Assembly: GCA_947628965.1 (NCBI GenBank)
Contig: CANRBV010000001.1
Span: 41,225 to 105,224 of the forward strand
Source of the DNA: an uncultured Bacilli bacterium
GTDB lineage: Bacteria; Bacillota_I; Bacilli_A; RF39; UBA660
Length of the DNA stretch: 64,000 nt
Reading direction: 5' to 3'
The number at the start of each line of letters is the position of its first letter. The first letter of the stretch is position 1. Shown in pieces: positions 8,801 to 16,111 of the stretch. A program made the translations under genes and the position numbers. The notes under the pieces are model-generated. The model saw only the letters and a list, made by a program, of their open reading frames with translations. It was not told the DNA's origin and made no database searches.

Positions 8801-8968
8801 TTGTTTTTTTAAATACCTGGTCGCATTTAAAAACAATTTATTAAAACATAACTTTTATTATGTCTTAATCATAAATGGGGCAAAATTCCAATAGGCATAA
8901 AACCTTTTTTATTTGCTCTCTTTTAATAACTTTATTTTATTAAAATTCCTTTTATTTGTCAATAAATT

Positions 8969-10663
8969 TTATATATCTTCTAAGCATAAATGAAAATGCA
9001 ATTCTTTTTCAAATCTGCCTTTTAATAATTCATTTTTTCTATCTATTTTAATCGTTTTAAAGCATTTTGGATTATTAACTACACTTTCAATTATATTATC
9101 TAATTCTTCGCTTTTCTTTTTGCTTTTCCACTCGTCGCCTCTAATAGGAATTTCAATGACTTTAATTTTATAATGCTTTCTTAATCTTTCTAAATATCTA
9201 TCTAATTCTATTTTGCTATCTATCTTTGCAATACTATAAATACTATTTCCATTATTACAATACATATCAATAACACCATTTCTTATTAGATTAAATAAAG
9301 CATTTAATTGACTACTTTTAAATTTTATTTTATTTATCTTTACATCATAATTTTGCTGATTTGAACCAGGTATTTTACTAATATATATTGCCTCTATCGT
9401 TTGCCTAATAAATACCTTTTTTTCTTCATAATCCATATCATCCCATTTTTTAAAAGCATTATTCTTATTTTGAATATCTTTAATAACAGCCTCATCTAAT
9501 AACTCTCTAATTTCTTCTTTTCTTTCTTTTAATCTTTCATCTGGGGCTTCTAATTCTACATTATTTAATATTTCATTTAATCTTTCATTATCGACTAATA
9601 AAGAATTGTAGGTTAGAGCCATATTAAATTCAGCAATATTACTTAATTTATCAAATAATAATTTTTCTACTTTAGCCTCATTTATACGACTATTACATTT
9701 TTTACAAATATAATGCCTTATATTCTTACTTTTATTACTACTTACACATAATAGACTGCCACATTTATTGCAATATAATGTTTTTCCAAACATATAATCT
9801 AAACTACCACCAAAACTTTTTTTATTCTTTTCCATTAAAACTTGACAGTCCTTAAATACATCTTTTGAGATAATTGGAGGAACAACATCTTCATATACGA
9901 TTGTTTCTTTATCTTTTAATGATTTTCTATGCTCTATATCTCCACAATATATTCTATTATTTAATATTTGCTGAATAGCCCAATCTTTCCATTCCATTAA
10001 ATTATTATTTTCTGATTTTAATTTTTCAGCAATATAATAATATGAATAGCCCTTTAAATATAAATTAAATATTTTTCTTATCGTTGGAGCTGCTTCTTCA
10101 TCTATTATTGCTTTTTTCTTTAATTTAATATCTTCATTATTTATATCTCTTTTATAACCTAAAGGCAACTTACCAATAGGAATACCTTGCTTTACTGTAC
10201 CAACTAACCCCATAATCGTTCTTTCCCTTGTTTGTTCTACCTCTAATTGAGCCAATAAAATAACTAATCTAATAAAGAATTTACCAAAAGCATTGCTCGT
10301 ATTTATTTCTTCTGTAACCGAAACTAAATCACAATGCTTTTCTTCAAATAGCACTAATATTTCTTCTAAATCTTTAATAGACCTTGTAAGTCTATCTAAT
10401 TTATAAATGCAAACTGTATTGATTTTATCACTACATATATCTTTCAACATTTTTTGAAATTCTGGGCGACCTTTCATATCTTTAGCACTTTTTCCATCTT
10501 CTCTATATATTTTGCAAATATTATATTCTTTAAATTTACAAAAAGCCTTTATTCTATCTAATTGCTCATCTAAACTATGTCCTTCTCTTGCTTGGTCTTC
10601 TGTACTAACTCTAATATATACACCAATTCTTTTTTCTTTACTTTCTTCCATACTACAAATCAC
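8969..10663 (-). CDS. Large serine recombinase (phage-integrase / TnpX-CcrB type)
   Basis: N-terminal resolvase catalytic domain ([11 protein letters not shown]...); central recombinase domain; Cys-rich zinc-ribbon (CNKCGS...CKKCNS); coiled-coil C-terminus. Confidence 0.85.
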
Positions 10664-10780
10664 TTATATTAAAAATACTACTATATTTTTTTTAATATTT
10701 TCTCCTCTCACTACTTATTATATGCAAAAATATTTTTTTTTAATGATTAGCCCCAAAAAACTTAAAAAATAGAGAAGATA

Positions 10781-11371
10781 TTATCTTTTTAATAAATTAT
10801 AAAAACTATTTGGCTTTAAATTTAACATTTCTATTGCTTCTTTACTTTTTATTTTTTTATTTTTCCATAATTCTATAACATAATCATAATTACTTGGCTT
10901 TTCTATTTTTGGGCGACCAAATCTTATTCCTTTATTTTTTGCATTAGAAATTCCTTCCTTTTGCCTTTGCTTAATAAATGACCTTTCTTGCTCTGCGACA
11001 TAACTTAATATTTGCAATACTAAATCACTAATAAATGTGCCTAATAAATCTTTATTATTCCTTGTATCTAATAATGGCATATCTAAAACAACAATATCTG
11101 CTTTTATATTTTTTGTAATTTCTTTCCATTCTTCAATTATTGCATTATAATTTCTTCCTAATCTATCAATACTTTTAATTACTAATAAATCATTTTCCCT
11201 TAATATATTTTTTACTATGCTATATTGCTTTCTTTCAAAATCTTTTCCACTTTGCTTATCAATATAAATATCTCTCTCTTCTATGCCATATTCTTTAAAT
11301 GCTAAGATTTGCCTTTCTTCATTTTGCTCTTTGCTACTAACTCTACCATAGCCAAATACTTTATTTTTCAT
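10781..11371 (-). CDS. Small serine recombinase (resolvase/invertase) with C-terminal HTH
   Basis: GYGRVSSKEQNEERQ catalytic serine motif; about 190 aa. Confidence 0.85.
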   Translation of the reverse strand: MKNKVFGYGRVSSKEQNEERQILAFKEYGIEERDIYIDKQSGKDFERKQYSIVKNILRENDLLVIKSIDRLGRNYNAIIEEWKEITKNIKADIVVLDMPLLDTRNNKDLLGTFISDLVLQILSYVAEQERSFIKQRQKEGISNAKNKGIRFGRPKIEKPSNYDYVIELWKNKKIKSKEAIEMLNLKPNSFYNLLKR

Positions 11372-11378
11372 TTTATAC

Positions 11379-11639
11379 CTACTTTGCTAAAAAATTGCTT
11401 ATTTCTCTAAAGATTCTATCTATAATAACATCTTCAAATGTTCCTACTAATTCTACTATGATATTATTATCTTTTAATTCACCAATGAAGTTAGAACATG
11501 CTATTAAAAATGGAAATTCTTTTTTTCTTTCTTTTTCTTCTTCCAATGTATCCAAAATATTATCAACATAACCATCACAGACAAATGATAATATTTTTCT
11601 TAATTCATTTTCTCTCATTTTATGGCACCTCCTTACCAT
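11379..11639 (-). CDS. Hypothetical protein (86 aa)
   Basis: ORF 8 nt downstream of the resolvase gene's start, same strand. Confidence 0.45.
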   Translation of the reverse strand: MVRRCHKMRENELRKILSFVCDGYVDNILDTLEEEKERKKEFPFLIACSNFIGELKDNNIIVELVGTFEDVIIDRIFREISNFLAK

Positions 11640-11795
11640 AAAATATTATAGAAACATTCGTTCTATTTCTCAACCAATTTATTTAAAAATCTCAAAAAAA
11701 TTTATAAACATTTAAAAAATCAATTTTAAACTTTTATAAACATAAAAAAAGACTTAATCTTAATAAGAATTAAATCTTTATAAAATTACACTTTT

Positions 11796-12293
11796 TTAAA
11801 CACTATATAAATTCTTTATTTCTTCGCTTGGCAATACTAATGTAAAATCAATATCATAAATATTTATTAACTCATTTAATTTTTTAACAATTTCTTTTGC
11901 TATATCATTATGCTTATAACCATGTACCCCTGTCCCTATGCTAACACTAATAATACTTTTATAGCCATTATCTTTTGCTGATATAAATATTTTTTCATAA
12001 CTATTTAATAAATCTAATAGGGGAGAATTGCTTTCATAATATTTTGGAGAATATATATGCAAAATATCAATACCTAAATCAAAACCAGGACTATATCTAA
12101 TTTCATTAACTCTCATATTTTCTTTATAATTCTTTTTACAATAATCTTCTAACAATTCTTTATTTGCCTTTTTATATATTGCCCCACAAACACCACTACC
12201 ACATATCATATATTTATTATTACTATTAACTATTAAATCTTTATTTTCTAAATAATCAAATATATTGCCACTTATAACATTTAACTTACCCAT
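11796..12293 (-). CDS. Macro-domain protein (ADP-ribose binding / ADP-ribosyl hydrolase-like)
   Basis: ISGNIF...IVNSNN...GSGVCGAIYKKAG pattern corresponds to the macro-domain Gly-rich ADP-ribose pocket. Confidence 0.65.
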   Translation of the reverse strand: MGKLNVISGNIFDYLENKDLIVNSNNKYMICGSGVCGAIYKKANKELLEDYCKKNYKENMRVNEIRYSPGFDLGIDILHIYSPKYYESNSPLLDLLNSYEKIFISAKDNGYKSIISVSIGTGVHGYKHNDIAKEIVKKLNELINIYDIDFTLVLPSEEIKNLYSV

Positions 12294-14855: not shown

Positions 14856-15635
14856 CTAAATGCTTATATCTTCTTCAAATATTCTATTTCTTCTACTAAG
14901 ATTTTCCTGTACTTTATTATCTTCTAACTTTAATTCATAATTTTCTTTAATCTTGCTTATTCTTATTTTTCTCATAAACTCATTAGAATTTTTTTTATCT
15001 TGCTCTTTCGTTATTTCAAAATAGAAATTCTTTATTTCATAATATTTTTGCTCTAATGCTAATCTTCCTTTTTTACCATTTATGACAAATTGACTTATAT
15101 ATTTTACATAAGCATAATATAAATCTTTTAAACTATATCCCTTTGGAATTACATTTTCACTACAATAATTACAAAATAATACTTCTTCGCCCTGATTTAT
15201 AAAATATTCTGCTTTATTTATATTTGCATTTTTCTTATATATTTTTAGATTAGCATAATTTATTTTATCTCTTTTAATTTTATTCTTATACCAATTTTTA
15301 TCTATATAATTTTTTATTAAATCTCTAAACGCATAACTTGGAATCGATACCAATAAAATATGAATATGCCAATCTACATTTATAATATCTTCATTATCAA
15401 AACCTTTTAATACTTTTTTTGGGCGACCAACTTTTCCATTTTTTTCATAACAAACCCTCGTATTATTGCCTTTAACATTACTAATACAAATCATTGCCTC
15501 TGCTTCCCAATTTCTTTTTTTACAATTATATCTTATAAATTCAATTAAACTTTTAGCATGCTTTTTTGCTTCTTCCTTACTTTTAAATTTTATATTCAAA
15601 TCGAAAGTTGATAAACCTAATTTTTTCTTTGACAT
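14856..15635 (-). CDS. HUH-endonuclease superfamily rolling-circle replication initiator-like protein
   Basis: DWHIHILLV = HUH motif (H-hydrophobic-H-hydrophobic x3); downstream Tyr-containing segment; lies in the mobile element. Confidence 0.55.
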   Translation of the reverse strand: MSKKKLGLSTFDLNIKFKSKEEAKKHAKSLIEFIRYNCKKRNWEAEAMICISNVKGNNTRVCYEKNGKVGRPKKVLKGFDNEDIINVDWHIHILLVSIPSYAFRDLIKNYIDKNWYKNKIKRDKINYANLKIYKKNANINKAEYFINQGEEVLFCNYCSENVIPKGYSLKDLYYAYVKYISQFVINGKKGRLALEQKYYEIKNFYFEITKEQDKKNSNEFMRKIRISKIKENYELKLEDNKVQENLSRRNRIFEEDISI

Positions 15636-15640
15636 AATAA

Positions 15641-15931
15641 TTACCCCATATTCCTTATAGCATTTATCAATTTTTTTAACATGGGAGCATTTATTACGAT
15701 ATTTTTATTATATAAATACAAATTTAGATTATCATAGCATAGCAATACTAAATATATATCATTAACCTTAATAATAAATCTATGAGGCTCTATAAAATTA
15801 ACATTTGTTTTTTCAACTTTAAATATAAAACCATTTTTAAATTCTAATTTTACATTATTAAATACACATATATTATTTAACTTATTATAAATATTCTTAT
15901 TTAATGGCATAACTTCTTTACTAAATTTCAT
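15641..15931 (-). CDS. Hypothetical protein (96 aa)
   Basis: ORF immediately downstream of Rep. Confidence 0.4.
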   Translation of the reverse strand: MKFSKEVMPLNKNIYNKLNNICVFNNVKLEFKNGFIFKVEKTNVNFIEPHRFIIKVNDIYLVLLCYDNLNLYLYNKNIVINAPMLKKLINAIRNMG

Positions 15932-15956
15932 ACTATCAAACCTTTCTTTTTAATAA

Positions 15957-15990
15957 CAAAAAAACTAGGATTTCCTATTGAAATTCCTAG
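15957..15990 (-). terminator. Rho-independent terminator downstream of tRNA-His
   Basis: ctagga..tcctag hairpin followed by a 7-T run on the minus strand. Confidence 0.5.
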
Positions 15991-16034
15991 CCTTTGCTAT
16001 AATCAAAAACCTTAAAGGTTTGATTTCCCAAATA

Positions 16035-16111
16035 TGGGGCGAAATGTGGGGATCGAACCCACGCATACCGGAGCCACAATCCGGCGTGTTAACCACTTCA
16101 CCAATTCCGCC
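16035..16111 (-). tRNA. tRNA-His: tRNA-His (anticodon GUG) with encoded G-1 and 3' CCA
   Basis: Folded by hand: 8-bp acceptor stem including G-1:C73; anticodon loop TTGTGGC (GTG); T-arm GTGGG-TTCGATC-CCCAC; CCA encoded. Confidence 0.9.

Follow-up and report, generated by a model that had tools for sequence, protein, structure and literature searches.

A probable integrative element at the 3' end of tRNA-His, carried with its own large serine recombinase by an uncultured RF39-type bacterium

A 64,000-nucleotide stretch of contig CANRBV010000001.1 from an uncultured Bacilli bacterium (assembly GCA_947628965.1, positions 41,225 to 105,224; the window in what follows) was analysed around its tRNA-His gene. 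The nearest relatives of the window were uncultured "Bacilli/Tenericutes" metagenome-assembled genomes, mostly rabbit-gut ones, of the RF39 / Candidatus Coprovivens type. Positions 8875-16033 probably form an integrative element of a modular family, which encodes the large serine recombinase (LSR) that inserted it at the tRNA-His 3' end and whose life cycle would involve an XRE-type regulator, the LSR, a 259-aa protein termed Rep259 and a small resolvase. The element measures 7.16 kb and holds nine genes, every reading frame being intact. A first-pass annotation, made from the letters alone, had described an integrated element here, and its interpretation is supported as essentially right: the island is real, was integrated by an LSR and restores the end of the tRNA.

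The tRNA-His gene (GTG; 16035-16110, minus strand) was intact, with CCA encoded. It was recognised by ARAGORN, as the sole tRNA of the window, and by Rfam (RF00005, 62 bits), and the block ends at the tRNA 3' end as originally annotated; an Rfam scan of 8.4-16.3 kb gave no RNA besides tRNA-His. From the tRNA leftward, the minus strand encodes orf96 (15641-15931), Rep259 (14856-15635), orf280 (13344-14186), a PH_gly_zipper / zinc-ribbon membrane protein (12311-13216), a macro-domain protein that binds or hydrolyses ADP-ribose (11796-12293), orf86 (11379-11639), a small serine recombinase of resolvase/invertase type (196 aa, 10781-11371) and the LSR (564 aa, 8969-10663). The XRE/Cro-CI-type regulator (14258-14587) is encoded on the plus strand, between Rep259 and orf280. 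Scans with Pfam, PHROG, NCBIfam and PADLOC returned nothing relevant for Rep259, orf96, orf86 or orf280. Pfam bore out the annotated combination of LSR, small resolvase and opposite-strand XRE gene: HTH_3 matched the regulator (9e-14; an RstR-like match at 4.8e-18 lay under the family cutoff), and PF00239 matched the small recombinase (1.5e-25; catalytic Ser in GRVSS).

In the LSR, Pfam Resolvase (PF00239, 3.9e-36, residues 15-160) and Recombinase (PF07508, 1.6e-19) domains were found together with a catalytic Ser in IRVSTEDQ, and phrog_95 integrase matched at 3e-97. The zinc ribbon of the first-pass annotation was recovered in part: CxxC-x18-CxxC can be read in the sequence, but Pfam Zn_ribbon_recom had no match under E 0.01, although it matches the LSRs of sister elements. 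The best NCBIfam match was CcrB, far under cutoff; a XisF-like match was also under cutoff. The A/T-richness noted earlier was confirmed quantitatively. GC content was 22.7% in the element vs 27.9% in the rest of the window, GC at third codon positions was 13.9% vs 18.9-20.9% in flanking genes, and the element was the lowest-GC 7.1-kb sliding window of the entire 64 kb.

The right-flank dehydrogenase was scanned against 185,579 species genomes, and the resulting 80 syntenic loci were annotated with ARAGORN and tblastn (L numbers denote loci of this and the other scans). The right flank was syntenic in more than 40 RF39-type genomes (DH360 57-97% identical), and related genomes with the same right-flank genes lacked the element, in agreement with an integrated block. 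At L016, a distance of only 224 bp separates tRNA-His from the GroEL-like gene, which is the left-flank gene in the window; the corresponding gaps at L078 and L018 are 1.4 and 2 kb. At L007, L010, L014 and others, a terminator immediately follows tRNA-His. At L006 (dehydrogenase 94% identical), tRNA-His is directly followed by 136 nt (11459-11594) that are 91% identical to window 8754-8886. Comparisons of the L006 and L016 type thus identify the 7.16 kb between the repeat copies as extra DNA. Exact-protein matches of the flanks came from the same strain only, and their contigs end inside the tRNA, so that they are uninformative on excision.

L006 was rejected as a clean empty site: it has its own perfect pseudo-copy of the tRNA end 3.2 kb downstream, at 14634, with a tyrosine-integrase gene between. 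The 125 bp in common with the window are therefore the end of a different island, which is intact in L006 (3.2 kb, 11470-14633) and of which the window retains a stub and the old tRNA terminator only. This stub (8754-8874, minus strand, outside the element; 91% identity to L006) is the remnant of the tRNA-proximal end of an older tyrosine-integrase-type tRNA-His island. Because the L006 site is occupied, the window is to be read as an LSR element beside the remnant of an older island.

Loci L005-L084 showed at least four recurrent sequence types after the CCA end of tRNA-His, several with LSR-like genes 33-62% identical to the LSR of the window. The tRNA-His gene is thus an integration hotspot in this clade, with at least four island types, and the LSR-like genes downstream of it suggest a whole LSR clade specialised on tRNA-His. 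A 75-bp fragment at window 8626-8700 was 79-83% identical to the interior of a DUF1016/YhcG-like gene in tRNA-His-downstream islands of L051, L009 and L019; it is a relic of yet another older insertion.

A metagenome scan with the LSR gave three loci with LSRs 79-83% identical (L094, L095 and L096). A fourth, L055, has the same backbone and came from the genome scan; its LSR lies outside the fetched DNA. In L055, L095 and L096 the element abuts an intact tRNA-His, and in L094 (LSR 80% identical) it abuts a pseudo-copy in an apparent tandem array. All four are placed at the same GCCCCA core with the same P' arm, and the P arm is common to L094-L096. The acceptor and T-arm sequences of tRNA-His in L055, L095 and L096 differ mutually and from the window, so the hosts differ.

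The pattern ATGGGGC[A/G]AAAT, picked post hoc after the repeat had been seen, occurs exactly twice in 64 kb, at 8875-8886 and 16034-16045, against a chance expectation of 0.01. The attL core GCCCCAT (16034-16040, minus strand) comprises tRNA positions 71-76 plus 1 nt and is identical at attL of the four sister loci. The attR core GCCCCAT (8875-8881, minus strand) is a displaced pseudo-copy of the tRNA-His 3' end. It lies inside the 14-nt att repeat originally proposed at 8874-8887, of which a pseudo-copy at 8875-8886 stands, but as an 11/12 match with a functional core of GCCCCA(T) only. Nothing beyond GCCCCA(T) was common to attL and attR across the five sister elements, in line with the earlier caution that serine recombinases need little identity. 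Immediately before the core, the element arm has T and the tRNA arm has C, and the L094 junctions differ at the base after CCA; strand exchange is therefore placed inside the 6 bp GCCCCA. The additional ATTT identity of the repeat is a coincidence of the acceptor stem of this host.

Both arms were traced in the sister copies. On the tRNA side, GCCCCAT is always followed there by TTATGGGAAAATCAAACCTTT; the window version, the attP-derived P' arm ATTTGGGAAATCAAACCTTT (16014-16033, minus strand), is near-identical to the sequence after tRNA-His in L055 and L094-L096. On the far side, AAAGGTTTAAYGCCTATTGGAATTTT stands about 60-80 nt past the LSR stop and is followed by TGCCCCA (TGCACCA in L095) and then by unrelated host sequence. 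The attP-derived P arm of the window, AAAGGTTTTATGCCTATTGGAATTTT (8882-8907, minus strand), is conserved directly 5' of the pseudo-tRNA core in L094-L096. At the end of the P' arm stands AAACCTTT, an inverted counterpart of AAAGGTTT from the P arm. Once attP is reconstructed, the two lie 37-38 nt apart and are centred on the G/C that starts GCCCCA, which is the imperfect dyad expected of an LSR site. A short core in att sites of about 40-50 bp, imperfect dyad symmetry, and attL and attR that are hybrids of attP and attB characterise serine integrases; here, four other hosts show the arms conserved together with the LSR. Comparison thus supports LSR-mediated site-specific insertion with a regenerated tRNA 3' end.

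Elements of the same backbone with other recombinases were found at other targets. At L085 and L088, LSRs of 520 aa (27-29% identical to that of the window) accompany a split NMT1-family gene, while the backbone remains similar to the window (resolvase 78-79%, Rep259 51-58%; XRE 89% in L085). An NMT1-family substrate-binding gene is split at the same place in three genomes (L085 9342-20795, L102 9351-19498 and L088), each time by an element with a 520-aa LSR, with 182-185 aa on one side and a matching 150-aa part in L085 and L102; L102 was assigned by gene order alone. At L097-L099, elements with the gene order of the window and LSRs of 543-551 aa split spoIVA (435 aa plus a 64-aa SpoIVA_C part). 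The splits at L102 and L097-L099 were judged by annotation. The L097 element spans 8597-17042, and L098 and L099 carry a second LSR element just upstream in spoIVA. These spoIVA-splitting copies may be sporulation-regulated intervening elements like skin or gin. The L089/L090 element (XRE 71% identical, LSR truncated) abuts tRNA-Trp, with a TGCCATT repeat 7.07 kb away. Comparison supports the LSR module as the integrase, exchangeable and setting the insertion site. Tn4451-type transposons combine a TnpX-like LSR of low target specificity with a TnpZ Mob/Pre relaxase; such promiscuity was not seen, since the five elements (window, L055, L094-L096) all lie at one core, and no Mob/Pre domain was present.

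The backbone order was taken from the contexts of six Rep259 homologues and reads: orf96 (in part of the elements), Rep, XRE (opposite strand, convergent), cargo, an orf of 75-86 aa, a resolvase of 196-198 aa, small open reading frames (ORFs; in part of the elements) and LSR. The non-coding regions upstream of XRE and of orf86 are conserved over the family. These comparisons support a modular family in gut Bacillota, in which a Rep259, XRE and operator module and an orf86 and plasmid-type resolvase module are separated by a variable cargo slot. XRE was the most conserved backbone gene (84-90% identical in L055, L085-L087 and L094). Cargo across the family comprised Macro, PH_gly_zipper, ADP-ribosylglycohydrolase, KAP NTPase, ApeA_NTD, methylase plus BglII-type endonuclease, DUF4268, Fic and SLFN-like helicase genes. 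The window element has three cargo genes. Its macro-domain protein matched PF01661 (4.9e-15) and, weakly, PADLOC DarG (0.0023). Its neighbour showed Zn-ribbon matches under cutoff, and PF27000 matched the identical protein of L003. For orf280, Pfam matches were sub-threshold only; a 57% identical copy is present in L023. The PH_gly_zipper/zinc-ribbon protein recurs in L055, L094 and L102 and stands beside the macro gene in the window, L094 and L102; the pair may be a two-gene defence or anti-defence unit.

Three small backbone genes were compared in the same way. orf96, which adjoins attL, had no Pfam, PHROG or NCBIfam match. Its identity is 74-79% in elements with LSRs 79-83% identical and 34-42% beside more distant tRNA-His-linked LSRs, and elements with other LSR types lack it; the mini-element of L096, 2.4 kb long, consists of orf96 and LSR only. 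Serine integrases carry out attP x attB integration but depend on a directionality factor for excision. As orf96 tracks the LSR type and is found alone with it in L096, it is a candidate LSR accessory or recombination directionality factor. orf86, immediately upstream of the resolvase and without family match, is 40-57% identical in L055, L085, L089, L094 and L095, and ORFs of the same size class (75-76 aa) occupy that position in L097 and L102. The resolvase is 78-87% identical among elements with unrelated LSRs (down to 27%) and a changed target, which argues against a CcrA/DsiA-like role in att recombination; co-evolution of the second recombinase with the LSR, as in CcrAB/DsiAB-type pairs, was not observed. 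The 'res' recombinases of Bacillus plasmids 4-9 kb in size match the resolvase at 57-61% identity over its full length, and this likeness gives indirect support for an extrachromosomal phase. An IMG/VR scan contained no relatives of the resolvase.

Rep259 contains WHIHILL, EYFINQ (Y-x3-Q) and a GRPKK that resembles an AT-hook. Clustering at 90% left more than 130 homologues and clustering at 50% left 125 representatives, none of which carried a family annotation; a second profile search over a 5.8-billion-protein set re-found the Rep259 family alone. In 51 members down to about 20% identity, S52, H90 and Y144 were invariant and G70, R71 (of the AT-hook-like GRP), H92 and Q148 nearly so, with the consensus pHIHIll..P followed by Y-x3-Q-S. 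The H-hydrophobic-H signature of HUH proteins on a beta strand was present, H90 and H92 lying on predicted strand 86-98. In AlphaFold2 (AF2) models (pLDDT 78.7 and 77.7), HxH is on the central strand and Y144 and Q148 are on predicted helix 140-148, C-terminal to the HxH strand and two elements on. The order beta-alpha-beta...beta(HxH)-alpha-beta-alpha(Y) is compatible with a HUH nuclease. The motifs come in the same order, HxH and then a Y-helix, in rolling-circle Reps and in IS200/IS605 TnpA, in which a Gln one helical turn past the Tyr completes the metal site. Weak Rep-family matches were seen in 5 of the 51 relatives (four REP_ORF2-G2P, one Rep_trans; E >= 0.0013), and did not recur when ten remote members were scanned singly. 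The HUH Rep of the first-pass annotation is thus upheld as a protein with HIHILL and a motif conserved over the family, but neither sequence profiles nor fold comparison placed it in a Rep or HUH family. Whether Rep259 is a HUH-type nuclease is in our judgement evenly balanced, and that it is specifically a replication initiator is less probable than that.

Several non-coding features accompany the genes. A structured leader (15935-16024, minus strand) follows the tRNA, with a hairpin CTAGGAATTTC...GGAAATCCTAG and a run of seven T; the RNA fold has -31.5 kcal/mol and z = -5.3, and is conserved in L055 (z = -4.8). Hairpin and T run are predicted to act as a replacement terminator for tRNA-His, whose former terminator now lies at 8760-8801, outside the element. 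In the predicted fold, the outer stem of the leader is formed by the P' arm and the ribosome-binding region of orf96; the attP-derived ATCAAACCTTT pairs with this region in the leader hairpin (window 15935-16034, minus strand). Such pairing could impose a translational control of orf96 that differs between integrated and circular forms. Just past the LSR stop, an outward-facing promoter-like TTGACA-17-TAAAAT (8934-8962, minus strand) agrees with the consensus at 11/12 positions, and the same hexamers occur in L095. This candidate promoter would face orf96-Rep259 across attP in a circle.

The motif CTATCATATAATA (14820-14832, minus strand), just 3' of the Rep259 gene, is conserved in 6/7 elements as the sole conserved block of the Rep-XRE intergenic region. 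It is a candidate cis site, either an origin/nick site or a promoter; a conserved hairpin at this position was considered and dropped, as none was supported. Two AT-rich 66-nt direct repeats of 76% identity (repeat family D1) lie at 14650-14782 between the convergent Rep259 and XRE genes. The divergent promoter/operator region between XRE and the cargo operon (14187-14257) is a non-coding block strongly conserved over 6 elements. A further conserved non-coding block (11640-11795, minus strand), aligned over 7 elements, consists of a terminator-like hairpin, a TTGAGA-17-TATAAT promoter (11/12, unsurpassed among the promoter-like sites of the region) and, for orf86-resolvase, a strong ribosome-binding site; it is a possible regulatory or res site.

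Comparison supports strand exchange within GCCCCA (tRNA positions 71-76), and attP bears the same 6 bp, so that the tRNA end is rebuilt; a new terminator is supplied by the element because the old one is displaced by 7 kb. For the further life cycle the following is proposed. XRE would hold the leftward operons off and keep the element silent. Upon induction, the LSR would excise a circle, perhaps with orf96 as directionality factor, and Rep259 would nick and replicate this circle in a rolling-circle-like manner. It would act at an AT-rich site, for which CTATCATATAATA at 14820-14832 and the P'-arm palindrome are candidates. The resolvase would resolve multimers and so keep the circles monomeric, and the circle may spread by hitch-hiking, through mobilisation or phage packaging.

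The following observations weigh against this proposal. The only close-relative site without the element (L006) holds another island, and the tRNA-His interval of L016 includes a run of N. Some sister copies are decaying (L096 LSR frameshifted, L055 Rep split, L089 LSR truncated). No excised circle or attP junction was found, an IMG/VR scan with the predicted junction being negative, and the window has no recognisable relaxase, coupling protein, packaging or type IV secretion gene. Rep259 had no match in Pfam, NCBIfam or PHROG, and two profiles of its family had none among PDB sequences. Three Foldseek searches with two AF2 models (full length vs PDB and BFVD, N-domain vs PDB) were without significant hit, HUH proteins were missing from the top 50, and generic alpha/beta sandwiches ranked best. 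With hhalign, the Rep259 HxH was in register with NPHFHVLIAVN of pC194 Rep, which speaks for a HUH protein, but at a probability of only 8.6%; local alignment with M13 gpII, phiX174 gpA and pC194 Rep gave nothing. Homologues of Rep259 were absent from plasmid records, from 50,697 phage records (tblastn) and from IMG/VR.

The lack of a profile or fold match for a HUH domain is also what would be expected if Rep259 were a DNA-binding or regulatory protein and not a nuclease. The element would then be a non-replicating island capable of excision and reintegration only, and the resolvase would serve another purpose, for instance inversion or co-integrate resolution. The AT-hook-like GRPKK and the weak fold matches to DNA-binding alpha/beta domains such as EBNA1 are consistent with this, as are L095 and L096, which have the same LSR and are without Rep259 and XRE. 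The residues that resist divergence, however, are H-x-H on a strand, Y-x3-Q on a later helix and a Ser, a set more typical of a catalytic site than of a DNA-binding surface, and the Rep259 gene is linked to a plasmid-type resolvase; we consider the non-nuclease explanation a minority possibility. Replication and spread might otherwise be those of a phage satellite similar to phage-inducible chromosomal islands (PICIs) or PICI-like elements (PLEs). XRE would be the helper-sensing master repressor, the LSR would excise, Rep259 would replicate, helper capsids would package and the cargo would protect the host. The layout of integrase, divergent repressor and replication gene is satellite-like, family cargo is often defence-like, and among satellites the Vibrio PLEs use an LSR (PMC9638900, PMC9410903). 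In L094, a 130-aa ORF between Rep and XRE (4114-4506) matched three PHROGs of terminase small subunits (TerS; best 6e-9), but it also reads as a plain helix-turn-helix protein in Pfam. This relative was the only one with a TerS-like ORF; in the window element, Pfam and PHROG scans gave no TerS-like, capsid, portal or packaging-interference gene and no capsid-redirecting gene of the cpm or ppi kind, and the absence of Rep259 relatives from IMG/VR and the phage records extends to the resolvase. To our knowledge, 7.2 kb is also small against known Gram-positive PICIs, which counts against a satellite, and we hold this explanation to be improbable.

The origin of the terminal repeat was also considered in terms of the older island, whose tyrosine integrase might have produced it; the serine-recombinase block would then have arrived as cargo, or secondarily with different ends that escaped recognition. 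Tyrosine integrases classically target tRNA 3' ends (PMC10484663), L006 has a tyrosine-integrase island at this very tRNA-His, and the remnant of an L006-type island adjoins the element. Against this stand the sequences abutting both repeat copies, which are conserved along with the LSR in four other hosts, and the change of insertion site upon LSR swap. The T/C difference beside the core moreover fits a P-arm origin of the pseudo-copy, and the ORFs of 8875-16034 contain no tyrosine integrase gene, fragment or phage-integrase domain. Such an origin of the repeat is hardly credible, and insertion by the LSR of the element is retained.

Among described systems, the serine-recombinase integrative and mobilisable elements (IMEs) of Firmicutes, including Tn4451/Tn4453 (PMC5704250), are closest in kind. 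Like the element, they are small (about 6-7 kb), have one LSR gene, placed terminally, are flanked by short repeats, carry accessory cargo and lack conjugation machinery, and some bear rolling-circle-Rep-like proteins that double as relaxases (PMC5704250). Known site-specific members insert into protein genes, which they interrupt, and Tn4451 has low target specificity (PMC5704250). Unlike these, the element targets and rebuilds a tRNA 3' end, is without a MobV/Pre-type or other recognised relaxase, and has an extra plasmid-type resolvase and the unannotated Rep259. It possesses the integration/excision module of its own and the defined att ends of an IME; Rep259 and CTATCATATAATA are only candidates for relaxase and oriT.

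The Dehalococcoides ssrA islands with DsiB/DsiA and SCCmec with CcrA/CcrB (PMC3146451) resemble the element in that a CcrB-like LSR is accompanied by another serine recombinase, smaller and equally oriented. The ssrA islands in addition target the 3' end of a structural RNA (ssrA), leave a direct repeat, accrete in tandem at a hotspot and have a cargo slot (PMC3146451). They offer the best precedent for a CcrB-like LSR repeating a structural-RNA 3' end. Unlike in these islands, the target is a tRNA acceptor end, the core is 6-7 bp vs the 20 bp of ssrA, and the LSR is distal and does not overlap attL. Full-length alignment of the small recombinase with plasmid resolvases, and its conservation whatever the LSR type, argue against a partner role like that of CcrA/DsiA. 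Islander/TIGER-type tRNA/tmRNA islands and prophages likewise insert at tRNA 3' ends, regenerate the gene, have a displaced pseudo-3'-end as distal boundary and use hotspots; the element differs from them in its serine instead of tyrosine recombinase and in a core of just 6-7 bp. tRNA targets are overwhelmingly used by tyrosine integrases (PMC10484663).

With skin, SPbeta and gin with GirC/GirX (PMC5595907), the element shares a non-phage nature and several serine recombinase genes including an LSR; the small directionality factor and precise excision of those elements would be further common traits. The parallel extends to the sister elements of L097-L099, which split spoIVA. The window copy, unlike these, interrupts no coding gene, and Rep259, XRE and orf86-resolvase are unreported for gin. 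We know of no spore formers among RF39-type hosts. The Vibrio cholerae PLE is similar in its LSR integrase and, putatively, in its own replication initiator and its anti-phage role, but is about 18 kb in size with a characterised helper-phage interplay; here, there is no sequence relationship to it and there are no packaging functions.

Outside the element, the genes of the left flank (5078-8539) overlap at their stop and start codons and apparently form an operon. They code for a radical-SAM protein, a DUF4130-like protein and a GroEL-like paralogue of the Cpn60/TCP1 family (504 aa); synteny extends to relatives, where the GroEL-like gene is just 39-47% identical. A protein of 761 aa (28878-31163), several hundred residues of which are tandem repeats rich in Q/S/N/E, adjoins a large AAA-type protein and accounts for the strong AT-skew anomaly at 29-31 kb.

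The literature searched, with incomplete coverage, held no description of the backbone or of Rep259, so that "undescribed" is provisional. We tentatively propose, at somewhat less than even confidence, an undescribed family of compact (2.4-10 kb) modular integrative elements in gut Bacillota. It would combine a new HxH/Y-x3-Q initiator with an AT-hook, absent from sequenced plasmids and phages, a plasmid-type resolvase, a slot for variable and often defence-like cargo and swappable LSRs for tRNA-His, tRNA-Trp, NMT1 and spoIVA, with a tRNA-His LSR clade that, in the manner of tyrosine integrases, recombines within the acceptor end and supplies a 3' end and a terminator. Of chief interest are the LSR clade that regenerates its tRNA, the family with its swapped modules and Rep259 as an unclassified protein. 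Serine integrases are prized for genome engineering, and tRNA 3' ends are conserved single-copy "safe" sites that have so far been used mostly by tyrosine integrases (PMC10484663). A tRNA-His LSR clade with defined attP and GCCCCA core would give ready-made attB sites in many Bacillota, and sister LSRs for tRNA-Trp, NMT1 and spoIVA share the same backbone. If Rep259 is a nuclease, it would represent a new branch of rolling-circle-type initiators. The family offers a clean natural case of retargeting through recombinase-module swap, and appears to be an unrecognised vehicle by which uncultured gut bacteria of the RF39 type and their kin carry changing sets of genes, often of defence-like character.

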